Assembly: GCF_000007185.1 (NCBI RefSeq)
Contig: NC_003551.1
Span: 799,646-831,645, forward strand
Direction: 5' to 3'
Length of the DNA: 32,000 nt
Origin: Methanopyrus kandleri AV19
GTDB lineage: Archaea > JAADCQ01 > Methanopyri > Methanopyrales > Methanopyraceae
Position numbers and translations under genes: made by a program. Positions within the stretch are counted from its first letter, which is position 1. Each line of letters begins with the position of its first letter. Of this stretch, positions 2,987-19,755 are shown in pieces. The notes beneath the pieces were generated by a model, which was given only the letters and a program-made list of their open reading frames with translations, searched no databases and was not told where the DNA came from.

Positions 2987-3307
2987 ATGCAGGAAGACGA
3001 CATCTGCCCGGTTTGCGGTCTTCCCAAGGAACTTTGCGTATGTGAGGAAGTTTCCAAGGAGACAGTTGAGAAGATCAAAATATACACTGAGCAGGTCCGA
3101 CCAGGTAAGGTAGTGACCATCATAGAGGGCTTAGACGACGCCGGTATCGACTTGCAAGAACTAGCCAGCAAGCTCAAGCGTGAGTGTGCCTGCGGGGGTA
3201 CGGCCAAGGAGGGTAAGATAATCCTACAAGGAGACCACCGTAACAAGGTCCGAGAGTTCTTGATTAAGAAGGAAGGCTTCTCAGAAGACGCCATCGAGGT
3301 CACGTGA
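2987..3307 (+). CDS. Translation initiation factor SUI1 (aIF1/eIF1 family)
   Basis: The ORF opens at 2948, but ATG 2987 (MQEDDICPVCGLPKELCVCEE...) avoids overlap with L29. It has an N-terminal CxxC...CxC zinc knuckle and the SUI1 core KIKIYTEQVRPGKVVTIIEGL...LASKLKRECACGGTAKEGKIILQGDHRNKVREFL. Confidence 0.9.
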   Translation: MQEDDICPVCGLPKELCVCEEVSKETVEKIKIYTEQVRPGKVVTIIEGLDDAGIDLQELASKLKRECACGGTAKEGKIILQGDHRNKVREFLIKKEGFSEDAIEVT

Positions 3308-4004
3308 TCCCCATCAAAAACACCCTTCTGCCCGATATCTCCTCGGGGAACGCCACTCCTACATGGACTTGGTACCCGTGTTCTTCCAGAAACTTCCCCC
3401 TCATTCTACACACTTCAAGCTGGTATTCGACAGAACTTTCCGCCCTCTTGAGCACCTCACGGACTCTTTCTATACCCTCATCTACGCCGAGTTCCTCCAC
3501 GATCACGCGGGGGCTGGCCCTACCGTAGCAGCAAGGTACAACGAGTACGAAATGTGCGTCCGAGTTCACGGCCAGCTTGAGGAGCCTATCCGTGAGCGTA
3601 CCGCACAGGTGTAATCCCACGATGACATCGGGGTCGTCCGGGAGACCATACTTCGCCGTCTCGTGAAGGTCGTTGACTTCGAATTCCAAGTTGTCGAGTC
3701 CCACTGATTCAACGTAGCGCTCGAGCTCCGTCCAAGTCTCGAACTCCTTGATGTCGAACCCGAGCACGTCACAGGACGGCGAAGAAACCGCCAGCGCCGT
3801 CGTCAGTGTCCCGCGGCCGCACCCGCAGTCTACTACCGTGTCCCCTGGTTTTAGCCTTGAGCATAGTAGCGTTAGTATAGTCTCAACTTGCTTCTTCTTC
3901 CTCCATGCGTCCCGACCGGACCTCGGAAACGCACACCTCGGTAAATACAGACAGCTCATACCGGAGGGGGTTCGATACCTTAACTCCAAGTCCCCTTCCC
4001 CCAC
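3300..4004 (-). CDS. Class I SAM-dependent methyltransferase (specificity unknown)
   Basis: 234 aa. Motif I is GDTVVDCGCGRGTLT, with post-I acidic LGFDI and later VIVGLHLCGTLTD. The only usable starts are ATG 4004 or ATG 3959. Both overlap the divergent rpp29 start at 3905. Confidence 0.8.
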   Translation of the reverse strand: MGEGDLELRYRTPSGMSCLYLPRCAFPRSGRDAWRKKKQVETILTLLCSRLKPGDTVVDCGCGRGTLTTALAVSSPSCDVLGFDIKEFETWTELERYVESVGLDNLEFEVNDLHETAKYGLPDDPDVIVGLHLCGTLTDRLLKLAVNSDAHFVLVVPCCYGRASPRVIVEELGVDEGIERVREVLKRAESSVEYQLEVCRMRGKFLEEHGYQVHVGVAFPEEISGRRVFLMGIT

Positions 4005-4231: not shown

Positions 4232-4942
4232 CAGTTCAATCGGTACTGGGATCACTATGGTGACGTTCTCTTCCGCTGAGACCTCGGAGAGCGTCTGAAG
4301 GGTCCTCAGTAAGCCTGGGTTCACTCCTAAGACCTCCGATGCCTTCCGTAGATCCTGTGCGGCCTGTTTCTCCGCTTCCGCTTGGATCACCCTAGCTCGA
4401 CGATCCCGTTCAGCTTCCGCCTGTCGGGCTATCGCCCGTCTCATCTCTTCGGGCAATATTACGTCGCGGATTTCGACACCGGTGACGTGGATTCCCCATC
4501 CCTCCGTCTTCTCGTCTATGATCTCCCGAATACGCTCGCTCAGCTCCTCCCGCTTCGCTAGAATATCGTCCAAGTCGACCTCACCGAGCACCGATCTCAG
4601 TGTGGTTTGCGCCAGGTTGAACACGGCCTCTTCATAATCCTCGACGTTTAGCACGGCGGAGACGGGATCCACTACCCGGTAGTATATGACGGCGTCGACT
4701 TTAATCGGTACGTTATCCTTGGTGATGACTTCCTGAGCCGGTATGTTCTGAGTAACGACCCGAAGATCCACCTTGATCATCTTGTCGATGAACGGGACGA
4801 TGAAGTTGAGACCGGGTTCCCTAGTTCCAATGTACCGTCCAAGTCGTAGGAGTACGCCTCGCTCGTATTGATTCACTATCCGAACCGAGGCCGCCAGCAC
4901 GAGGAGGGCCAGTACTCCTCCGACCACTAGCGGTATGATCAA
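4205..4942 (-). CDS. SPFH/band-7 protein (stomatin/prohibitin homologue)
   Basis: 245 aa. An N-terminal TM helix is followed by VRIVNQYERGVLLRLGRY...PGLNFIVPFIDK...VDLR...DAVIYYRV.DP, then the coiled EAERDRRARVIQAEAEKQAA segment. Confidence 0.9.
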   Translation of the reverse strand: MIIPLVVGGVLALLVLAASVRIVNQYERGVLLRLGRYIGTREPGLNFIVPFIDKMIKVDLRVVTQNIPAQEVITKDNVPIKVDAVIYYRVVDPVSAVLNVEDYEEAVFNLAQTTLRSVLGEVDLDDILAKREELSERIREIIDEKTEGWGIHVTGVEIRDVILPEEMRRAIARQAEAERDRRARVIQAEAEKQAAQDLRKASEVLGVNPGLLRTLQTLSEVSAEENVTIVIPVPIELLKLLKEPE

Positions 4943-5367
4943 CGCCGCTCCCCGGTTTTCCTCCGCTTAACTACGAGTTTATTACCTTTTACATCCAGTA
5001 CGACCACCCGCTCCCCTCGCCGTAACCGGGTCTTAGAGACGGCTCTCCACGGTTCTCCACGTACTTTCACCAATAGCGGGTCTTCCCGGATTACGATGCC
5101 TTCCTCCCCTTTAAGCTCCCCGACGCTCTTCAGAAGAACGTCGCTGCTTTCTTCCGTTCGTCTCAGAACCGCCGCCACCTGCATGAGGAGGACGAACGCG
5201 CCGGGCGGAAGTGTGGCAATCAGATATTTCGTTCCCATCAGGTACGCTCCGACCCACGCGCATACTACCCCTATCATGGCCACTATACCAGTGTTAAGTA
5301 CGCAATCTAAAACTATCAGCCCCACGCCCGCAAGGAGGAGACAGAGCTCTTGAGACAAGGTGTCCAC
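4939..5367 (-). CDS. NfeD-like membrane protein (stomatin operon partner)
   Basis: 142 aa. Three predicted TM helices are followed by a C-terminal OB-like LKGEEGIVIREDPLLVKVRGEPWRAVS...GERVVVLDVKGNKLVV. Its stop overlaps the stomatin start by 4 nt, the classic nfeD-stomatin pairing. Confidence 0.8.
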   Translation of the reverse strand: MDTLSQELCLLLAGVGLIVLDCVLNTGIVAMIGVVCAWVGAYLMGTKYLIATLPPGAFVLLMQVAAVLRRTEESSDVLLKSVGELKGEEGIVIREDPLLVKVRGEPWRAVSKTRLRRGERVVVLDVKGNKLVVKRRKTGERR

Positions 5368-5392: not shown

Positions 5393-6721
5393 GTGATATT
5401 CGAGCGGGGGAGCCACGTGGACGTAGTGATCGGTGCGGGACCTGCCGGCCGCACTTACGCAATGATCCTCGCCGAAGCTGGACACGAAGTGCTGCTACTT
5501 GATAGAAATGGAAAGGAAGGAACCGGTGGCAAATGCCTGAACGAGGCGTGTGTCGTGCTCGGTGCGCTGATCGAGGCCGCTAGACTCGTCGTGTGGGCGA
5601 AGCTCGGTATTCCGGGAGTGGAGCTGGACGTCGGGGACATCAACTTCAGACGTCTAACGCGGTCCGTAAGGAAAGTCGTAGAGACCATACGACAACGATT
5701 GATCAAAGAGACCGAGAGAGCCGGTGTTGAGATTCTGCGGGCTGAGGCGGTGAAGGTAGACGAGTCGCTCAACGTCTACACCAAAGATGGTGATGTTCTC
5801 GAGGCCGATAGAGTGCTGATAGCCACCGGTTCCCGACCGGCGATTCCCGAGGTGGAGGGGGTGGATTCGGACGCCGTGTTTACTTTTCGGGAAATTTTGG
5901 AAATGGAAGTGCCCTCAGAGCTCTGCGTCGTCGGTGGAGGTCCGACGGCCCTTGAGTCCGCTTTTGCTTTCGCGGCTCTCGGGTCCGAAGTAGTTCTGGC
6001 GTACAGGTCTAGAATACTACCGAATGCTCCGGAGGAAGTCCGTCGCGAGATCCTTAAGGATTTGGAGCTCGTGGGTGTCAACGCCGTCCGTGCGGGAGAA
6101 CTACGGGCGATTCGGGAGACTTCCAGCGGTGTGGAATGTAGGTTTGAGCGCGGAGCTACCGTGGCGGACGCAGTTTTACTAGCCACTGGCCTCGAACCTA
6201 ACTCCGATATTGCCGCTAACTCCGGACTCCCCTTACGGAAGGACGGGTCCGTCGTGGTGGATGATGGGATGAGAACACCGCGTGATGGAGTTTACGCTGC
6301 AGGCGACGTGACAGGACCTCCCTATCTGACTCCCGTCGCTCGGTACGAGGGAACGGTGGCCGCACTGAACGCGTTGGGCAAGAACGTCCGACGGGGGAAT
6401 CCGCCGGCTCCTCGCGTGATCAGACTCTTCCGAGACTTCGGCCGACTGGAACTGAGGGGGATCGACTGGGAAGGCTCACTCCCTACACCGGTAGGTGGAC
6501 CCGCGTTCTGGATGCTTCATCATGGTATCAAGGGTAAGATGGTGTGCAGGAAGCGCGGAGTTACTACCGAGGCGTTCATCGTGGCGCCCAGAATCGCACC
6601 GATGCTCCCGTACCCACGCTGTGTGGAACCTGACTGGCGGCTGATCGAGGTGCATCCTACCCCGGACCCTGTGATCGGCCTGCTCAAGCAGCTGGGGCTC
6701 CGCAGGACGCTTGGTGAGTGA
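5393..6721 (+). CDS. Class I FAD-dependent pyridine nucleotide-disulfide oxidoreductase (dihydrolipoamide dehydrogenase / mercuric reductase-like)
   Basis: 442 aa. FAD motif VVIGAGPAGRTYA, a redox-disulfide-like GGKCLNEACV (CxxxxC), NAD motif VVGGGPTALESA, second FAD motif VYAAGDVTG, and a C-terminal HPT motif (EVHPTPDP). The start is GTG, and GTG 5417 is an alternative. Confidence 0.85.
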   Translation: MIFERGSHVDVVIGAGPAGRTYAMILAEAGHEVLLLDRNGKEGTGGKCLNEACVVLGALIEAARLVVWAKLGIPGVELDVGDINFRRLTRSVRKVVETIRQRLIKETERAGVEILRAEAVKVDESLNVYTKDGDVLEADRVLIATGSRPAIPEVEGVDSDAVFTFREILEMEVPSELCVVGGGPTALESAFAFAALGSEVVLAYRSRILPNAPEEVRREILKDLELVGVNAVRAGELRAIRETSSGVECRFERGATVADAVLLATGLEPNSDIAANSGLPLRKDGSVVVDDGMRTPRDGVYAAGDVTGPPYLTPVARYEGTVAALNALGKNVRRGNPPAPRVIRLFRDFGRLELRGIDWEGSLPTPVGGPAFWMLHHGIKGKMVCRKRGVTTEAFIVAPRIAPMLPYPRCVEPDWRLIEVHPTPDPVIGLLKQLGLRRTLGE

Positions 6722-6722
6722 A

Positions 6723-8729
6723 TCATCTGATCCGCTCTCCGGGCTCCACTTCCCTCTTACTCTCGTCGATAGTCAACAATGCGGGTTCGTCCCCAACGGC
6801 CAGGATCATCGCTTCCGACCGTACGCCGAACATCTCTTTGGGTTGGATGTTGGCTAGTACAACCACCTTACGTCCGACGAGCTCCTCTGGCTCATACGTA
6901 GGATACAGTCCGGCTACTGCTGTTACGGTACGATCTCCGATATCGATCCGGAGCTTGATGAGTCGATCAGAGCCCTCGACACGTTCCGCTTCTTTGATCT
7001 TGCCTACCCGCAGGTCTAATCGATTGAATTCCTCGAGCGATACGTACTCGTCGTCCTGCCCTTCGGACTCTCCTGATTCTTCCGGCAGTAACGCCTTAGC
7101 TTTCTCAAGGTCCTCCTCCGTTACCTTCGGGAAAATGGGCTCGGGCTCCGGTATCTCCTTAGTCTCTACGTCCTCCAAGGCTTCTTCCCAATCGACGTCA
7201 TGTACGGAGTCTTCGTAACCAAGACTCTGCCAAATCTTCTCCGCACTATCCGGAAGGAACGGGGCTAACATTACAGCTAGCGCTTTCACAATTCTAGCGC
7301 ACCCACGTAGAACTTCGGCACAACGCTCTGGATCTTCATCCTTAAGTTTCCACGGCTCGTGTTCTTGGAAGTACTCATTCCCAAACTTAGATAGACGTAA
7401 TACCTCTGTGAGCGCCTCCCTGAATCGGAACTTCTCCAGATGTTCCGTCACACGCTGGTGAGTTTCTTTTATCTTATCGACTATCTCCTGGTCAGTCTCG
7501 GCTTCGGGAACGTTTCCGTCTAAGAATCTATAAATAAACGATAGCGTGCGATACACAAAGTTACCTAAGTTAGCCACTAATTCGTTGTTCACACGGTCCC
7601 GGAAGTCTCCCCACGAGAAATCCGCATCCCTGGTGAGCGGGCTCACCACTATGAGGTAGTATCGTAGCAGATCCGCAGGGAACAGCTTGGTGAAGTCTTT
7701 GACCCACACTACCCAACCACGACTTGTACTCATCTTTTCTCCTTCTAAGGTCAAATACTCGCCAGCCACGATAGTGTATGGGAGAGTCGCTCCGACGCCC
7801 ATGAGCATGGCCGGCCAGAACAGGGCGTGATGGACTATTATGTCCTTACCGATGAAGTGAACTATTTTCGTATCTTCACTAAACCAGTAGTCTTTCCAGT
7901 CTTGACCTACCCTATCACAGTATTGTTTCGTGAACGTTACGTATCCTATAGGAGCATCGAACCAAACATAAAACACCTTATCTTCGTATCCTTCCAGGGG
8001 AACGGGTACTCCCCAGTCTAGATCACGCACTATATCCCAATCCTTGAGTCCTTCACGAACCCATTGGATGGCATAATTACGCACGTTCTTAGGCAGATTG
8101 TCGTTGGACTCTAACCACTTCTTCAGATCTTCTTCGAATTCGCTAAGCTTGAAGAACAGGTGCATAGTGCGCCGGACCTCTGGCTTCGATCCACAGATGA
8201 CACACCTCGGCTCTTCGAGTTGTACGGGCTCCAGGTAGCGACCGCAGGCCTCGCAATGGTCGCCTCGGGCACCTTCAGCACCGCAGTAGGGGCATACTCC
8301 TTCGACGTACCTGTCCGGAAGGGGCCTTTCGCACTCAGGACAGTAGAGTTGTTCGACCTCCCTCTCCTCTATGTACCCCGCTTCGTACAACCTCTTGAAA
8401 AACCATTGTGTCATATCCACGTGGTCAGGATTGAACTCGCGGCAGGTGCATGAGAACTCGTCGAAGTGGATGTTCAATCGCTCTAAGTCCTCTTTGATCA
8501 TCTCGTGGTATTTTTCCACGATCTCCTCGGGATCCTTCCCCTCGAGCTCGGCCTGTAGCGCTATCGGGACCCCGTGGTTGTCAGTCCCGCCGATATGTAT
8601 AGCGTCGATACCACGCATCTTGAGGAACCTCGTGTACACATCGGCGGGGAGGTACGTGCTCCTAACGTGGCCGATGTGGAGTGGGCCGTTGGTGTACGCC
8701 AAGGCCGTAGTTACGAGTACCTTCCCCAA
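6723..8729 (-). CDS. metG: Methionyl-tRNA synthetase with C-terminal tRNA-binding (Trbp111/EMAP-like) domain
   Basis: 668 aa. HIGH motif (PLHIGHVRS), KMSKS motif (KMSTSRG), the Cys-rich connective-peptide knuckles CPECERP...CPYCGA...CEACGRYL...CVICGSKP, and a C-terminal LDLRVGKIKEAERVEGSDRLIKLRIDIG OB domain. The start is TTG. Confidence 0.97.
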   Translation of the reverse strand: MGKVLVTTALAYTNGPLHIGHVRSTYLPADVYTRFLKMRGIDAIHIGGTDNHGVPIALQAELEGKDPEEIVEKYHEMIKEDLERLNIHFDEFSCTCREFNPDHVDMTQWFFKRLYEAGYIEEREVEQLYCPECERPLPDRYVEGVCPYCGAEGARGDHCEACGRYLEPVQLEEPRCVICGSKPEVRRTMHLFFKLSEFEEDLKKWLESNDNLPKNVRNYAIQWVREGLKDWDIVRDLDWGVPVPLEGYEDKVFYVWFDAPIGYVTFTKQYCDRVGQDWKDYWFSEDTKIVHFIGKDIIVHHALFWPAMLMGVGATLPYTIVAGEYLTLEGEKMSTSRGWVVWVKDFTKLFPADLLRYYLIVVSPLTRDADFSWGDFRDRVNNELVANLGNFVYRTLSFIYRFLDGNVPEAETDQEIVDKIKETHQRVTEHLEKFRFREALTEVLRLSKFGNEYFQEHEPWKLKDEDPERCAEVLRGCARIVKALAVMLAPFLPDSAEKIWQSLGYEDSVHDVDWEEALEDVETKEIPEPEPIFPKVTEEDLEKAKALLPEESGESEGQDDEYVSLEEFNRLDLRVGKIKEAERVEGSDRLIKLRIDIGDRTVTAVAGLYPTYEPEELVGRKVVVLANIQPKEMFGVRSEAMILAVGDEPALLTIDESKREVEPGERIR

Positions 8730-15354: not shown

Positions 15355-15639
15355 TCATCTGCGGCGGCGGGGCCGACCCCGCCGCCTGCGAGGAGGACGC
15401 CTTCGCCGTCGTCTGGGTGGTATGAAGAGCTCCTTCCCGACGAACCTCTCGAGGTGGTGGCGGGACTTATCTCGGATGGCCACGTAGGGCTTATCCGCGG
15501 GCCCAAAAACGTCCACAATAACACCTACACGCTCACGACGGCGAGTTACAACGGGCGCCCCTAACGGCGGTACGTGATCGGCCCTTGCGATCAGATTTCC
15601 CCGGGGCGTAACGTGGAGGGCGCGCCCCAGCCTGCGCAT
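15355..15639 (-). CDS. gar1: H/ACA RNP protein Gar1
   Basis: 94 aa. MRRLGRALHVTPRGNLIARADHVPPLGAPVV...RVGVIVDVFGPADKPYVAIR matches archaeal Gar1 (LG.v.H....g.li.r...vP.l...Vv...vG.v.DvFGPv..PYv.i). It ends 15 nt upstream of tfb, the usual gar1-tfb linkage. The C-terminal tail is Arg-rich. Confidence 0.9.
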   Translation of the reverse strand: MRRLGRALHVTPRGNLIARADHVPPLGAPVVTRRRERVGVIVDVFGPADKPYVAIRDKSRHHLERFVGKELFIPPRRRRRRPPRRRRGRPRRRR

Positions 15640-15676
15640 GACGACACCGCCTGTGTGTCATTGTTCAACTCGAAGG

Positions 15677-15689
15677 TTTTATTGTTTTT
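15677..15689 (-). promoter_or_regulatory. A/T-rich TATA-like element upstream of gar1-tfb
   Basis: The minus strand reads AAAAACAATAAAA, 38-50 nt upstream of the gar1 ATG (15639). It is the only A/T-rich stretch in the 77-nt gap. Confidence 0.3.
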
Positions 15690-15716
15690 GGCACTCTAGA
15701 GCCCACGACTCAGACT

Positions 15717-16190
15717 TCACCTGTTGGCACATTCCGAGCACACATCGAGTTTCTTGTTGCTCTTGAACTTCTTCCCACACACCTTACACGTACACTCGTA
15801 CAGCTTTGCTCGCTTACCCTCGAGCTCGGCTTCCCTCTTGATCCGGCATGTCCTCTCCAGCTCTCGACGGAGGTAGAACCAGGTATCACCGAACACATCC
15901 CTGCCACGCATTACTACTCTCCTGGCGACCTCGAGTCCATCGCCGTCTCCATGCATAGCACGTACCATGGCACTCAAGAACTGGCGCTCTCGGTACCTGT
16001 AAAGGTCTATAGCGTCGTTGGGGCAGACGCGCACGCACTCATCGCAAGCGTCGCAGGCCTCCAGGTCCGCGATGACCACCTCTTCGCCCTTGATTTTCAA
16101 CACTCCTCTCTCACAAACTTCCACACAGAGCGCACAGGAGGCTCCCTCACATCTGGTCCGGTCGATCTCGATCCGACGGACTACCTGCAC
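15717..16190 (-). CDS. 4Fe-4S dicluster (ferredoxin-type) domain protein with C-terminal Cys4 zinc-ribbon
   Basis: The ORF opens at 16298. GTG 16190, preceded by GGGGGA, gives VQVVRRIEIDRTRCEGASCALCVEVCERG...CDACDECVRVCPNDAI (two cluster motifs). A roughly 70-aa linker follows, then CTCKVCGKKFKSNKKLDVCSEC. Confidence 0.7.
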   Translation of the reverse strand: MQVVRRIEIDRTRCEGASCALCVEVCERGVLKIKGEEVVIADLEACDACDECVRVCPNDAIDLYRYRERQFLSAMVRAMHGDGDGLEVARRVVMRGRDVFGDTWFYLRRELERTCRIKREAELEGKRAKLYECTCKVCGKKFKSNKKLDVCSECANR

Positions 16191-16216
16191 CGAGGCTCCC
16201 CCGGGGAGGATCGGAG

Positions 16217-16609
16217 TTGGACGTACGGGTTCGAGAGGATGACGGCGACGTGATCTTAGAGTTCTATGCGGAGGATGGCAAGTCGGTCGAAGTTTCAACG
16301 CGTGCGTTCTACACGGCAGTATACCTGAACCGTCAGGACCCTATCGAGAAAACGAAGGAGTTGTTCATTAAGGTCTCGAGGATCCTCGGCGAGGAGCAAC
16401 CCGAGATCTCGGTGCGGCGAGAGGAGGACCCTTCGGGTCACATCCTGAACCCGTGGGTGGCTAACTCGGAGGGTGCTGACGACGTATGGCCGCTGGTGTT
16501 CGAGGTGAGATCGAAGGACGGAGTGGCACGGGAGTTCACGTTACTTGTTCCCGTGAGGTTAGAGCGTCGACGACTCAGGGAGATACTTTTAAAAGTTTTC
16601 AGATCTTGA
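16217..16609 (+). CDS. Hypothetical small acidic protein
   Basis: 130 aa. The TTG start is preceded by GGGGAGGA. The composition looks coding (Glu/Val/Arg-rich like its neighbours). No recognised motif. Confidence 0.45.
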   Translation: MDVRVREDDGDVILEFYAEDGKSVEVSTRAFYTAVYLNRQDPIEKTKELFIKVSRILGEEQPEISVRREEDPSGHILNPWVANSEGADDVWPLVFEVRSKDGVAREFTLLVPVRLERRRLREILLKVFRS

Positions 16610-16639
16610 TCGTCGGGTTTCCACGGAGGTGATATCATC

Positions 16640-17575
16640 TTGTACCCGAGAGGAAGGGAGGCTACCCTCGCGGCCGTCTTGCATACCATACTGCGGGACC
16701 GTCCCTCGACACAGAAAGAGATCGCAGAGAAGGTTGGCGTTTCCCGACGATACGTGACGGAACTCCTAAGGCCGCTCATCGAGGAGGGCGCCGTTCGAAG
16801 GACGTATACCGTCGACATGTCGAAGCTCAGACGCCATTTCCCCGAATTATTCGAGGAGCTTGGAAACTTCCTGTACGAAGATGTGGAGATGCACTTAGAG
16901 GGCGTCCGACCTTACTTCAAACGCATGACCGACCTGACCCTCGAGCAGATCGAGACGGCTCTTATCGCGGTCGAGGAGAACCCGGAACAGGCCCCCAAAG
17001 TTATCGAGATGGACGAGGAAGTGAACCGGTTGGACGAGGAAATACGTCTCTACGTCCGGACGCTTCCAGTCCTCCATCCTTGTGAAGAAGCCGGCAAGGT
17101 GGCGACCCTACTGCTGGAGATCTCGCACTGCATCGAGCGGATAGGGGACTACGCGTGCAACATCGCGGAGGTGGCGGAAACACTCGGGACACTGTCCGAC
17201 CTGCAATGCTGGAGGGAAGTGCGGGAGGCCGCCCTGGAAGCCCGTAGCATGGTGAAAACCGCCTACAGCATTTTCCTCGGTCGGGTGAAGGAGGAGGACC
17301 TGCGCCATGAAGCCGAAAAGGTGTACTGCGCCGAAGATCGTGTCCACAAAAACATAATTAGGGCGTGTGAGAAGGCCGTCGAGGAAACGAAAGAGTTTCC
17401 TGAAAAGGCCGACCGACTGTTCGGTCTCTCTCGGATCACGAAGGACATCGAGCGTATCGCGGATAAGGCTGTAGACGTTGTAGATTTCACGCGCGAGCTC
17501 GTAGAGGGTAGGCCCCGGGATCTCACACCTGAGCAGGAGATGAGGAGCACCCTACCCGCTGACGGCACTCATTAG
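16640..17575 (+). CDS. Winged-HTH + PhoU-domain regulator (phosphate uptake regulator-like)
   Basis: 311 aa. N-terminal wHTH (STQKEIAEKVGVSRRYVTELLRPLIEEGAV) and two PhoU-type repeats ending in the conserved E/D-R-I-G/A-D motifs (HCIERIGDYACNIAE and KDIERIADKAVDV). The TTG start is preceded by GGAGGTGA. Confidence 0.75.
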   Translation: MYPRGREATLAAVLHTILRDRPSTQKEIAEKVGVSRRYVTELLRPLIEEGAVRRTYTVDMSKLRRHFPELFEELGNFLYEDVEMHLEGVRPYFKRMTDLTLEQIETALIAVEENPEQAPKVIEMDEEVNRLDEEIRLYVRTLPVLHPCEEAGKVATLLLEISHCIERIGDYACNIAEVAETLGTLSDLQCWREVREAALEARSMVKTAYSIFLGRVKEEDLRHEAEKVYCAEDRVHKNIIRACEKAVEETKEFPEKADRLFGLSRITKDIERIADKAVDVVDFTRELVEGRPRDLTPEQEMRSTLPADGTH

Positions 17576-17586
17576 GGGGGTGCCGG

Positions 17587-18303
17587 TTGTACTACATCGG
17601 GCTCGGTGGCTTCGGCTGTCGGTTCTCCACTCACGCCTCAAACGCAGGCCTCGAGGTGATCCTCTGCGCGGGATCCAGAGGAGACCTACTGCGGGTGTCG
17701 GAAGGCGAGAAAATCGAGGTGGCCAGCGGTATCGGGTTCAGTCGGGACTGGCGTAAGGCTTCCGAGGAGCTGCAAGAGCAAGCGGAGACTATCCGTGAGA
17801 CGTTAGAAAGGGTGGGCGCCGAGGAACCCACGGTCCTCGCTTTCGGTCTCGGTGGAGCCGTCGGATACGCTTTAGCGCAGCAGATTCTGAAGGAGCCTCC
17901 GGTGCCTTTCATCGTACTGACCACGGTTCCGGGAGAATCGGAGGATCCTCAGGTGCGTCGCAACGCTGCTGAACAGGTGAAGAGCGTCCTGGGAGTGTCC
18001 ATCAAGCTTCCCGTCCTCTGGGTGGACAACGCGTTAGGTGGGTATGAACGGGTTAACAGGGTACTCGAGAGGACACTCCTCGACCTCCGAGACTTCCTGG
18101 GCGTGCCCGTGGAGGAGCTCCCGAACTTGGCCGGTAACTACGCGTTGTCACCTTCGATATCCGGAGAGAAGGTGACCGGGGACGTCGTCAAGACATCGGC
18201 GGATGAGGTCAGGAAGCTGGTGAAGAGTAGGGAGCCAGAGGAACACGTGGTTCGACGCGAGCGCCGTGGGCCTGACCCGGAGTCGCTGAGAGAATTGTTC
18301 TAA
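17587..18303 (+). CDS. Divergent, truncated FtsZ/tubulin-like GTPase-domain protein (degenerate signature motif)
   Basis: 238 aa, collinear with the FtsZ N-terminal domain. YIGLGGFGCRF aligns with T1 GxGGxGxN. ASGIGFSRDWRKASEE aligns with T3 G.GAGG.P..G..AAEE. VLAFGLGGAVGYALAQ aligns with the T4 signature GLGGGTG(S/T)G. VLTTVPGESEDPQVRRNAAE aligns with T5 vvT.PF.fEG..R...A. LWVDNAL aligns with T6 ipN..L. No T7 loop or C-terminal domain is present. This is pattern-level inference. Confidence 0.55.
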   Translation: MYYIGLGGFGCRFSTHASNAGLEVILCAGSRGDLLRVSEGEKIEVASGIGFSRDWRKASEELQEQAETIRETLERVGAEEPTVLAFGLGGAVGYALAQQILKEPPVPFIVLTTVPGESEDPQVRRNAAEQVKSVLGVSIKLPVLWVDNALGGYERVNRVLERTLLDLRDFLGVPVEELPNLAGNYALSPSISGEKVTGDVVKTSADEVRKLVKSREPEEHVVRRERRGPDPESLRELF

Positions 18304-18315
18304 GGGGGAACCGCT

Positions 18316-18552
18316 ATGGCGAGGAAAGCTAGAGTGACGCTCACACTCTCCGAGGACGCCTTGGCCCGGGTCCTAGCGACCAAAGACGCCCTCGAGGGAG
18401 ACAGTATCTCGGCTACCGTCGGTAAGTTGGTGAAGTTCGGGTTCGCGTACCTCAGGGAGAAGTTCCCCGAACTGTTCGAGGGTATAAATCTCGAGGAGTA
18501 CCGTGAGAAGGCGCGTGAGCGCTGGTTCGATTCCGGATCCTCTCGGTCATAG
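18316..18552 (+). CDS. Ribbon-helix-helix (CopG/Arc-like) small DNA-binding protein
   Basis: 78 aa. The N-terminal basic beta-strand RKARVTLTLSEDAL is followed by two helices (ARVLATKDALEGDSISATVGKLVKFG), matching the RHH layout. It lies 12 nt after the FtsZ-like gene. Confidence 0.6.
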   Translation: MARKARVTLTLSEDALARVLATKDALEGDSISATVGKLVKFGFAYLREKFPELFEGINLEEYREKARERWFDSGSSRS

Positions 18553-18560
18553 TTTTTAAA
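18553..18560 (+). promoter_or_regulatory. TTTTTAAA element: TATA box for argJ and/or oligo-T terminator of the upstream operon
   Basis: It lies immediately after the RHH gene TAG stop and 32 nt upstream of the argJ TTG, which implies a very short leader. Confidence 0.45.
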
Positions 18561-18591
18561 CTCGGGTCAGGGGCCCCTCCAGGGAACCGCG

Positions 18592-19755
18592 TTGCGGGCA
18601 CCTGAAGGCTTCCTTCTAGGTGGCATCAAACGCGAAGGTATAGGAGTCGGGTTGATCTTCTCGGAGCGTCGATGTGCCGTGGCGGGCACTTTCACCGAGA
18701 ACACCCTCCGCGCCGCTCCGGTGGAGCACTCCGAGGAAGTGTGCGATCGAGGTGTCGCCCGCGGAGTGATAGTGAACAGTGGTCACGCCAACGCGATGAC
18801 GGGTGAGGAGGGGTATCAGGACGTACTGCGCACGGCGGAAGCGATCGCTGAGCTAATGGGGGCTCCGGAGGACGAGATAGTGGTGTGTTCTACGGGCGTG
18901 ATCGGTGAGCGTCCTCCTGTCGACAAGATCGTGAGGTACGCGCGCGAAGTTTGGGAGGATATAGGACCCACCGAACGGCACGTTCGGGAGTTTAGTCGGG
19001 CTATCATGACCACCGATACCGAGGAGAAAATAGCTTTGTACGAAGGCGATGGCTGGTCACTTCTCGGAATCGCGAAGGGTGCGGGTATGATACATCCGAA
19101 CATGTCCACTATGCTCGCGTTCTTGCTCACCGATGTAGGAGCGAAACCGAAAGAGCTTCAGATGTGGCTACGCGATGTCGTGAACGACACGTTCAACATG
19201 ATAACGGTAGATGGGGATGAAAGCACTAACGATTCCGTGGTGCTGCTGGCGAACGGCAGCTCGAACCTCAAAGTCGGCAGCGATGTTACCATCACGGAGT
19301 TCCAGCGCGCCCTGGAAGAGGTCTGTACGGAGCTCGCTGAGAAGATCGTACGAGACGGTGAAGGAGCGACGAAGCTCATGATAGTGTGTGTACACGGTGC
19401 GAGTAATGAAGTAGAAGCTCGGCGTGCGGCCCGTGCGATAGCGTCCTCAAACCTGGTGAAGGCGGCGCTGTTCGGCGAGAATCCGAACTGGGGCCGGATC
19501 GGAGCCGCTGTCGGGGCCGCACGCGTCGATGTTGATCCGGACGAGTTACGGATAGCTTTCCGCAGCTCAGAGGGCGAGATAGTGACCTACGAAGGAGGTC
19601 CAGTGGACTTCGACGAAGAGAAGGCTAAGCGCGTTCTCTCCGCGAGTGAAGTCGAGATTGTGGTGGACTTAGGCGTAGGTGACGCGTCCGCCCGCGCGTG
19701 GGGGTGCGACTTAACGTACGAGTACGTACGGATCAACGCGGAGTACAGGACTTGA
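18592..19755 (+). CDS. argJ: Bifunctional glutamate N-acetyltransferase / amino-acid acetyltransferase (ornithine acetyltransferase ArgJ)
   Basis: 387 aa. It contains the ArgJ autoprocessing site context GAGMIHPNMSTMLAFLLTDV, plus TVDGDESTNDSV and FGENPNWGRI. The start is TTG. Confidence 0.95.
   Translation: MRAPEGFLLGGIKREGIGVGLIFSERRCAVAGTFTENTLRAAPVEHSEEVCDRGVARGVIVNSGHANAMTGEEGYQDVLRTAEAIAELMGAPEDEIVVCSTGVIGERPPVDKIVRYAREVWEDIGPTERHVREFSRAIMTTDTEEKIALYEGDGWSLLGIAKGAGMIHPNMSTMLAFLLTDVGAKPKELQMWLRDVVNDTFNMITVDGDESTNDSVVLLANGSSNLKVGSDVTITEFQRALEEVCTELAEKIVRDGEGATKLMIVCVHGASNEVEARRAARAIASSNLVKAALFGENPNWGRIGAAVGAARVDVDPDELRIAFRSSEGEIVTYEGGPVDFDEEKAKRVLSASEVEIVVDLGVGDASARAWGCDLTYEYVRINAEYRT

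Follow-up and report, generated by a model that had tools for sequence, protein, structure and literature searches.

Does a stretch of the Methanopyrus kandleri chromosome hold the remains of an FtsZ gene, or a selected tubulin of unusual brevity with a task of its own? The stretch in question, 32 kb long with a GC content of 58%, is called the window below. It encodes a 238-amino-acid (aa) protein followed directly by a 78-aa protein with some likeness to ribbon-helix-helix (RHH) DNA-binding proteins. The FtsZ likeness of the former was already recorded in the 2002 genome annotation ('FtsZ GTPase involved in cell division'), and RefSeq names it 'cell division protein FtsZ' (WP_011019231.1); orthologues of identical length in other Methanopyrus genomes are labeled 'hypothetical protein'. 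An earlier note, written from the DNA of the window, had proposed a truncated tubulin/FtsZ-like protein that might be either a relic impaired in nucleotide binding or a minimal cytomotive filament paired with a DNA adaptor. As detailed below, the 238-aa protein belongs to the tubulin/FtsZ superfamily, lacks the usual C-terminal half and is under purifying selection. The two genes are tentatively read as a minimal DNA-positioning cassette, a nucleoside triphosphatase (NTPase) plus adaptor in the manner of TubZ or ParM-ParR, fixed on the Methanopyrus chromosome; we give this reading a probability of about 0.4.

A single-domain member of the tubulin/FtsZ superfamily

Against the Pfam Tubulin model (PF00091), the 238-aa protein on its own scores 13.3 bits (E 0.1), below the cut-off of 33. 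The NCBIfam FtsZ models do not match it, phmmer and hmmsearch comparisons with PDB sequences yield no significant tubulin match, and a three-sequence profile reaches RepX/TubZ among the PDB sequences at an E-value of 0.23. Because the Pfam and NCBIfam thresholds are missed and the domain tests described below also failed, the RefSeq name is unjustified.

Deeper searches, profile-profile alignment and structure prediction place the protein. A word-indexed database search recovered Methanopyrus relatives only, at 97% and 65% identity. An exhaustive hmmsearch with a three-sequence Methanopyrus profile against 1.84 billion representative proteins added 16 further proteins at E-values from 1e-6 to 1e-3. 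Ten of these distant matches exceed the Pfam Tubulin threshold, and the remaining six, of 230-254 aa, are short and Pfam-negative like the query. Among the 10 nearest matches outside the short family, TubZ-type C-terminal domains (TubZ_C_3 or TubZ-like_C) occur in four (P0006, P0013, P0014, P0018) and FtsZ_C in two (P0015, P0019), despite canonical FtsZ being far more abundant. When the family profile is compared by hhalign with 10 Pfam-verified Tubulin/FtsZ/TubZ proteins, residues 2-181 align with a probability of 98.3% and an E-value of 1.2e-14; in global mode with 11 family members, these values become 99.5% and 3e-21. The AlphaFold2 (AF2) model has a mean predicted local distance difference test score (pLDDT) of 75.7 and a predicted template modeling score (pTM) of 0.79. 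Its top 50 Foldseek matches in the PDB are all TubZ, PhuZ, CetZ or FtsZ with a probability of 1.00, including PhuZ/TubZ of phage PhiKZ, TubZ of phage c-st, CetZ, Bacillus TubZ and many FtsZ, and they are led by structures of PhuZ and TubZ, the segregation tubulins of phages and plasmids (3zbq, 4xcq, 3v3t, 3r4v). Among the viral models of BFVD, phage tubulins fill the first 10 places, and the scores collapse thereafter.

The assignment of the 238-aa protein to the tubulin/FtsZ superfamily is secure. What the earlier note had proposed on this point, a truncated superfamily member collinear with the FtsZ GTPase domain, is thus upheld: the collinearity is real and not a matter of chance, and the best structural and profile matches fall among tubulin and FtsZ proteins, not in an unrelated Rossmann-like family. 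A plain NAD/dinucleotide-binding Rossmann enzyme was considered as a candidate and rejected, as the fold and profile-profile evidence is uniformly tubulin/FtsZ.

Although the family members are only 19-27% identical to the M. kandleri query, their alignment contains 18 invariant columns. Sixteen of them fall on loops T1-T5 or on helix positions just after T3 and T4, and the remaining two, N180 and A182, follow helix H7 (Table 1). In T3, the 'RD..KA' pattern is common to the TubZ-like matches, for instance P0008 with GASKNRDKAKE. The T4 signature reads GGAVGYA in place of the canonical FtsZ GGGTG(S/T)G, exactly as first noted. Since the family consensus at this loop is G-[LI]-x-G-A-[VT]-G, with the Thr kept in two members, GGAVG is a family trait and not local decay. 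This consensus, together with the concentration of invariant columns around T1-T5, makes the label 'nucleotide-binding-impaired' a poor fit.

Beyond H7, the protein departs from FtsZ and TubZ. The Pfam scan finds neither FtsZ_C nor the TubZ C-terminal domains (TubZ_C_3, TubZ-like_C) in the 238-aa protein, and residues 175-213 of the AF2 model form a short helix, two short strands and one helix. A canonical NxDxxD T7 loop could not be placed: there are three possible registers, none of which keeps both acidic residues in Methanopyrus. The segment N180-x-A-x-x-(D) recalls NxDxxD save for a substitution of the first Asp, and the invariant N180 may be a T7 remnant, the alignment being ambiguous beyond residue 181. 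Pfam, the AF2 model and the alignments thus concur with the original observation that neither a canonical T7 nor a canonical C-terminal domain is present.

In their place, 10 of 11 family members carry a strongly charged, mostly acidic low-complexity linker with a hydrophobic motif at its very end: (S/T)PWDIF, DPWSLL, DPLDFL, FSRFL or VLDLL elsewhere in the family and SLRELF in Methanopyrus. Archaeal FtsZ proteins end in a 'GID'-centered peptide that binds SepF (PMC8178401), and the 238-aa tail does not contain it. The single family member without a tail motif, P0011, ends in …EDWIKRIGV and is also the sole copy without an adjoining RHH gene. Because this copy lacks both the partner and the motif, a contact between tail and adaptor fits, on the strength of one case.

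Selection acts on both genes. Measured against the 65%-identical orthologue in the fully syntenic locus L004 (L001-L016 being the other contigs that carry relatives), the ratio of nonsynonymous to synonymous substitution rates (dN/dS) is 0.22 for the tubulin-like gene and 0.043 for the 78-aa gene, the most constrained of the block, with both ratios approximate at a dS above 1. In the same comparison, the 78-aa protein is 88% identical and the neighboring ArgJ 70%. An intact frame of 238-241 aa is kept in all Methanopyrus genomes listed. Purifying selection at a dN/dS of 0.22 contradicts the description of the protein as a relic.

A conserved partner gene and upstream repeats

Members of the short family are 230-256 aa long and come from Methanopyri-like archaea. 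Scanning genomes and metagenomes and looking up contigs yielded 10 distinct members besides close duplicates, their sources being metagenome-assembled genomes (MAGs) of Methanopyri and Methanobacteriota and hydrothermal metagenomes. In nine of the 10, a same-strand RHH gene of 75-97 aa lies 12-24 nt downstream, so that the adjacency pointed out in M. kandleri recurs well outside it. An all-against-all comparison of flanking open reading frames (ORFs) shows that the tubulin-like and RHH genes are the only ones common to at least five unrelated neighborhoods; it revealed no additional conserved gene, TubY-like or otherwise. The exception, P0011 (L002/L016), retains intact loops despite having no adjoining RHH gene, and a paralogous RHH cassette is present in the same MAG (L003). 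The pairing as such is less unusual on an archaeal chromosome than had been supposed, given that an RHH gene beside a tubulin homologue is widespread in the form of the cdrS-ftsZ2 operon (PMC7439475, PMC9871819).

The identity of the partner is clear in the distant members. Their partner proteins individually match Pfam RHH_1, RHH_9 and RHH_3 at ~1e-5, and their family profile matches CopG (E 0.0016) as well as AvtR and Arc; by these matches, they are clear RHH proteins. All partner proteins carry a conserved helical C-terminal extension of 40-50 aa (…DDWEEV…EYLS…).

The M. kandleri protein calls for more caution. Taken by itself, the RHH call made for it in the earlier note was weak, as the Pfam scan of the 78-aa protein returned no match and its own profile found no RHH match in the PDB. 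The call gains from comparison with the relatives. The distant partner-RHH profile aligns by hhalign, over the whole of its RHH domain, in register with residues 1-41 at E-values of 5e-4 to 1.3e-3, and the protein ranks first among the 235 ORFs of the window against this profile (E 0.0013). Furthermore, eight of 13 residues match the CopG beta-strand, and the segment RKARVTLTLSEDALARVLATKDALEGDSISATVGKLV fits a strand-helix-turn(G-x-S/T)-helix pattern. A single-sequence AF2 model, of low confidence (pLDDT 64) and too poor for a fold search, has residues 1-12 extended, a helix at 13-25, a turn and a second helix at 30-49. The gene also occupies the position in the cassette that the RHH genes hold in the distant loci. 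On these grounds, the 78-aa protein is taken with moderate confidence to be the orthologous RHH partner.

In three unrelated distant cassettes (L005, L010, L008), the gap immediately preceding the tubulin-like gene contains short repeats. At L005 (also L012), an 11-nt unit is repeated 7.4 times at 3845-3923 and ends at a TATA-like sequence, TTTTAATATCC. The L005 gap is enriched in CGGGnnGA (P ~2e-6) and the 286-nt gap of L010 (also L011) contains seven of the eight [AG]TGACA copies of that locus, with pairs 11 nt apart (P ~4e-9), both P-values being optimistic as the motifs were picked after inspection. Related TGACA sites flank the cassettes of L001, L014 and L015, and L008 has three upstream copies of TTCCCC, two of them 11 nt apart. 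The repeat sequences differ among cassettes, as those of centromeres do.

Several further elements were seen around the distant cassettes. A GC-rich palindromic element of ~60 nt (…GGCCGTTT(A/C)GCCCG(C/T)CGGGCGGAGCGCCCGGCGGGCGCGGACCGGA…) occurs in near-identical copies at L006 3931-3990 and 5019-5088, bracketing the cassette just upstream of the tubulin-like gene and just downstream of the RHH gene; its possible roles are those of a terminator, an intergenic repeat akin to repetitive extragenic palindromic (REP) elements or a cassette boundary. A conserved inverted repeat, CGTTA(C/T)GA-N7-9-TAACG(AT), follows the RHH gene in the related cassettes of L001 (~6055-6085), L014 (~5310-5340) and L015 (~2805-2835) and also lies upstream of the RHH-less copy (L002 ~4740-4765), and could be a terminator or some other protein-binding site. 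The RHH-less gene starts ~120 nt from an opposite-strand tRNA-Val gene (L002 4783-4859; L016 7783-7859), and such genes are common integration sites. On the 7-kb contig L006, which otherwise holds only ORFans, a PCNA gene (PCNA_N, PCNA_C; 3168-3926) sits directly upstream of the cassette. Two L006 ORFs (6083-6385, 6416-6772) recur as homologues in L013 (3588-4153), where they sit on the opposite side of the cassette, an arrangement that suggests modular, possibly mobile, elements. In addition, an acidic-Trp-acidic motif is common to the RHH extension (…LDDDWEEV…, L001 5779-6036) and the tubulin-like tail (…D(S/T)PWDIF, L001 4968-5765), which raises the possibility that the two compete for one binding site.

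In the window itself, the pair belongs to a compact block whose features are collected in Table 1. The ORF check confirmed every coordinate of the earlier note, the shared strand and both spacings: the helix-turn-helix (HTH)-PhoU ORF, with Pfam matches to PhoU (E 2.3e-26) and HTH_24 (E 5.8e-7), ends 11 nt before the 238-aa ORF, and 12 nt separate the latter from the 78-aa ORF. The 238-aa ORF begins with TTG behind a Shine-Dalgarno-like run, GGGGGGTG, and the ArgJ gene begins at 18592. The three proteins have consecutive accessions, AAM02075-AAM02077. Sites of the form TTT[AT]AA[AT] are very rare at this GC content, with three in the 32 kb (660, 16587, 18554). Because the TATA-like boxes at 16587 and 18554 bracket and delimit the HTH-PhoU, tubulin-like and RHH genes, we infer that the three form one transcription unit. 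The element TTTTTAAAC likely marks both the end of this unit and the separate promoter of ArgJ. The synteny of HTH-PhoU with the pair is kept in the 65%-identical relative L004 and absent from all distant loci, and this linkage is restricted to the genus Methanopyrus.

Table 1. Positions in the window of the genes, promoter-like elements and protein segments under discussion
Feature	Position	Strand	Basis or remark
TATA-like box TTTTAAAAG, putative promoter of the three-gene unit	16587..16595	+	52 nt before the HTH-PhoU start
HTH-PhoU regulator gene (311 aa)	16640..17575	+	Pfam PhoU and HTH_24 matches
Short tubulin/FtsZ-superfamily protein, 238 aa, AAM02076.1 / Q8TX16	17587..18303	+	hhalign, Foldseek, dN/dS
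T1-like glycine loop G5-L-G-G-F-G10	17599..17616	+	Aligned to FtsZ GVGGGGGN; G7, G10 invariant in family; AGGCGC in distant relatives
T2-equivalent G29-S30-R-G-D33	17671..17685	+	G29, S30, D33 invariant, same in distant relatives; aligns with FtsZ N-T-D region
T3-like loop G48-I-G-F-S-R-D-W-R-K-A58	17728..17760	+	G50, R53, D54, A58 invariant; GSxTGAHRD in distant relatives, GAGxxP in canonical FtsZ
T4 signature variant F86-G-L-G-G-A-V-G-Y-A-L-A97	17842..17877	+	Aligned with GMGGGTGTGA; G87, G90, A91, G93, A97 invariant
T5-like segment T113-V-P-G-E-S-E-D120	17923..17946	+	E117 invariant; aligns with FtsZ P..ESEG region; P.P.EPE in distant relatives
T6-like VDNAL (147-150) of the 238-aa protein			Not conserved among distant relatives
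Helix H7 (residues 153-171, AF2) and following segment with invariant N180, A182	18043..18147	+	Possible T7 remnant
Charged low-confidence linker and C-terminal motif (…GPDPESLRELF)	18226..18300	+	pLDDT < 50 at residues 216-229; short helix 231-237
78-aa RHH-like protein AAM02077.1	18316..18552	+	RHH domain ~residues 1-41 (18316-18438), then helical extension
T-rich/TATA-like element TTTTTAAAC	18553..18561	+	Directly after the 78-aa stop codon, 38 nt before ArgJ

A few observations concern the surroundings of the unit. The N-terminal HTH of the HTH-PhoU protein has weak, sub-threshold matches to a ParB HTH model (PF17762, E 3.4e-4, its 21.2 bits falling short of the required 22.6) and to TIGR00180 parB_part (E 0.008); this is probably generic HTH similarity, though notable beside a possible segregation cassette. 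Upstream of HTH-PhoU lies a 130-aa ORF (16217-16609) with no family match, syntenic in L004 and fast-evolving in comparison with it (47% identity, dN/dS 0.26), whose start overlaps a divergent ferredoxin-like gene on the opposite strand (15717-16298, -). Scans of the window for tRNA genes and Rfam families returned no matches.

What the pair may do

In the reading that we favor, a DNA-positioning cassette, the 238-aa protein would be a stripped-down tubulin-superfamily domain (T1-T5 plus H7) that probably still binds nucleotide and self-associates, and the hydrophobic motif at the end of its flexible charged linker would be a docking peptide. The small protein would form an RHH dimer whose N-terminal ribbon binds repeated DNA sites and whose helical C-terminal extension contacts the NTPase, most likely via the tail motif. 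In the distant cassettes, the upstream iterons with their ~11-nt phasing may act as operator and centromere at once, as parC does for ParR-ParM and tubC for TubR-TubZ. ParR is itself an RHH protein that binds 11-bp iterons. The Methanopyrus cassette would have lost its own promoter and iterons, would be transcribed with HTH-PhoU and would presumably have been co-opted for positioning or segregating the host chromosome or nucleoid. Of the options raised in the earlier note, it is the minimal cytomotive filament plus DNA adaptor that comes closest, with polymerization as its predicted element. Known type III systems pair TubZ with a centromere-binding protein (PMC7762940), and TubZ requires a flexible C-terminal tail (PMC5322520).

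Several points weigh against this reading. The gravest concerns the filament. In every tubulin-family filament characterized to our knowledge, each subunit has two domains and its nucleotide face meets the T7/C-terminal face of the next subunit, the C-terminal domain and T7 forming the lower interface and the hydrolysis-activating loop. With that lower longitudinal interface and activating loop absent, polymerization of the 238-aa protein is doubtful, and both filament formation and nucleotide turnover are uncertain. Sequence alone, moreover, fails to place the short family: against the PDB, an eight-sequence family profile scores a GxxGxxG Rossmann segment of the NmrA type (E 0.014) ahead of FtsZ (E 1.1). 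The partner gives similar pause, as a hidden Markov model built from the distant partners scores the Methanopyrus 78-aa protein at E 0.93, failing to recover it, and the hhalign probability of its match to the distant RHH partners is 18-32%. The upstream repeat motifs were chosen post hoc, as said above, and neither the region 15500-19000 nor the whole 32-kb window contains a comparable repeat array. Finally, there is little in the surroundings to suggest an extrachromosomal element. Searches of IMG/VR, PLSDB and INPHARED (the latter two by tblastn) found no relatives of the family. Two distant copies are chromosomal, as judged from their location on contigs of 107-139 kb, and the Methanopyrus pair is chromosomal too, in a housekeeping region that is syntenic throughout the genus. 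The neighbors of the distant cassettes are rich in ORFans without Pfam or PHROG matches, and mobility cannot be demonstrated from them.

A more ambitious version of this reading makes the 238-aa protein the smallest known cytomotive tubulin, a single-domain NTPase with a core of ~215 aa that forms nucleotide-dependent filaments without a C-terminal domain and works with an RHH adaptor and iterons. This version we regard as doubtful. If true, such a system would unite the partition logic of type III (tubulin) with that of type II/Ib (RHH adaptor), and no tubulin-based DNA segregation system would have been described in archaea before this cassette, which Methanopyrus would have retained on its chromosome.

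The strongest alternative is a division module of the cdrS-ftsZ2 kind, in which the RHH protein would be a transcription factor for division genes and the short protein a divergent division or shape factor. The RHH protein CdrS is co-transcribed with ftsZ2 across Euryarchaeota (PMC7439475), ftsZ2 contexts usually include an RHH_1 gene (PMC9871819), and Methanopyri, like Methanobacteria, are reported to have FtsZ1 only (bioRxiv 10.1101/2020.06.04.133736). The short protein would then work with the single FtsZ1 of Methanopyri, possibly as a remnant or replacement of the FtsZ2 that they lack. The chromosomal location of the pair, its genus-wide synteny, the strong constraint on the RHH gene (dN/dS 0.043) and the putative co-transcription with the regulator HTH-PhoU are all in keeping with such a module. 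However, the gene order is reversed, the RHH gene lying downstream here and upstream in cdrS-ftsZ2, and the 238-aa protein has no FtsZ_C, no T7 and no 'GID' motif (PMC8178401). The nearest relatives by sequence and fold lean to TubZ and PhuZ over FtsZ. Also against it, one MAG carries several copies, the pair occurs in unrelated, ORFan-rich contexts, and the multi-copy phased direct repeats of the distant cassettes suit a centromere better than a simple operator. Such a module is an unlikely explanation, if a serious one.

Less probable still is that the short protein caps FtsZ1 filaments or belongs to a toxin-antitoxin-like pair. With an intact top (nucleotide) face and no T7/C-domain bottom face, it could dock on the end of a host FtsZ1 filament and stop its growth, and the RHH protein with its C-terminal extension would neutralize the capper and autoregulate the operon as a type II antitoxin does. 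The architecture is in keeping with this. Engineered FtsZ mutants with a defective bottom face are sub-stoichiometric cappers, and type II antitoxins likewise combine an N-terminal DNA-binding domain with a C-terminal extension. The pair also looks like a mobile two-gene module, with variable contexts and more than one copy per genome. On the other hand, no PADLOC model matches either protein or the distant members, no known toxin or antitoxin model does so, and PHROGs returned nothing meaningful. Operons in which the toxin gene comes first are the rarer kind, and arrays of seven or eight phased direct repeats are atypical of toxin-antitoxin operators. Nor does the long acidic linker with its conserved terminal docking motif point to a toxin; such tails are typical of FtsZ and TubZ. 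P0011 persists with intact loops in the absence of an adjoining RHH gene (the paralogous RHH gene in its MAG qualifies this point), and at ~20% identity to FtsZ, docking of the family on FtsZ1 is not obviously favored.

That the gene is merely a decaying FtsZ paralogue beside a small ORF placed there by chance, as its sub-threshold Pfam score (13.3 against 33 bits), altered signature, missing half and narrow distribution among the close Methanopyrus relatives of the word-indexed search might imply, is hardly credible in view of dN/dS ratios of 0.22 and 0.043 over a dS above 1, a frame unbroken throughout the listed Methanopyrus genomes, and the recurrence in a distant family of the same invariant loops and, in nine of 10 members, the same partner gene; a non-functional relic is essentially excluded.

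Taken together, the DNA-positioning cassette remains our preferred reading, and the system appears to be undescribed. The searchable literature yielded no paper citing the accessions of the 238-aa protein, and within that literature the short family, its single-domain architecture with conserved loops, the near-invariant RHH partner, the upstream repeats and the tail motif all appear to be new. Surveys that count one FtsZ in Methanopyri (bioRxiv 10.1101/2020.06.04.133736) omit this protein. A selected family that consists of the nucleotide-binding half of a tubulin with a docking tail would represent a new mode of assembly, a natural end-capper or a use of the fold outside filaments, and any of these outcomes informs the evolution of tubulin and FtsZ and the minimal requirements for polymerization. 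The machinery of DNA segregation in archaea is poorly known, and the RHH pairing, with iterons in some copies, offers a testable candidate for tubulin-based DNA positioning in this domain of life. The significance of the family is bounded by its narrow taxonomic range and by a function that we infer from sequence.

Relation to known systems

The closest parallel is to TubZ-TubR-tubC and PhuZ. There, too, a tubulin-superfamily NTPase with a flexible C-terminal tail is found, accompanied by a small DNA-binding adaptor, and the phased iterons beside the genes in three distant cassettes (none in the window) recall tubC. TubZ and PhuZ provide the best fold matches, and TubZ-type C-terminal domains are present in four of the 10 nearest non-family matches. 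The differences are nonetheless considerable. The 238-aa protein is ~100 aa shorter than TubZ, has neither the TubZ C-terminal domain nor the canonical T7 acidic residues, and bears GGAVG rather than GGGTG. Whereas TubR is a winged-helix protein encoded upstream, the adaptor here is an RHH protein encoded downstream, and the flanking-ORF comparison found no TubY. Unlike TubZ systems, the short family is on no known plasmid or virus in the databases searched, and its host lineage is archaeal, the Methanopyri.

In its gene order and type of adaptor, the pair is nearer to ParM-ParR-parC (type II) and ParA/ParF-ParG (type Ib), in which an NTPase gene is likewise followed by that of a small RHH adaptor with an extension, predicted here to contact the NTPase. 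The direct repeats of parC lie upstream and overlap the promoter region, and the ~11-nt direct repeats of the distant cassettes do the same. The NTPase of the Methanopyrus pair has a tubulin fold, in contrast to the actin-like or Walker-A enzymes of these cassettes.

In the cdrS-ftsZ2 operon, too, a tubulin homologue of an archaeal chromosome shares its transcript with an RHH gene (PMC7439475). FtsZ2, however, is full length with T7 and FtsZ_C, whereas the short protein is truncated, and CdrS, a transcription factor, does not have the C-terminal extension of the partner described here.

Two further comparisons concern the NTPase. FtsZl1 and FtsZl2 are, like the 238-aa protein, highly divergent prokaryotic members of the tubulin superfamily, and FtsZl1 is also without recognizable T6-H7 elements and a canonical C-terminal domain (PMC2875224). 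FtsZl1 has a coiled coil, operons with vWA, OmpA and kinase genes and a Pfam Tubulin_2 match, and FtsZl2 carries a C-terminal region of 300 aa, its neighbors not being conserved (PMC2875224). Membership of the 238-aa protein in either family was rejected on its length, the absence of a Tubulin_2 match, the retention of H7 and its HTH-PhoU, RHH and ArgJ neighbors. The isolated N-terminal GTP-binding domain of FtsZ, finally, spans the same elements, from T1 to T6 with H7, and likewise stops short of T7 and the C-terminal activating domain; the short protein differs from it in being a natural, conserved and stand-alone protein with a tail motif of its own.

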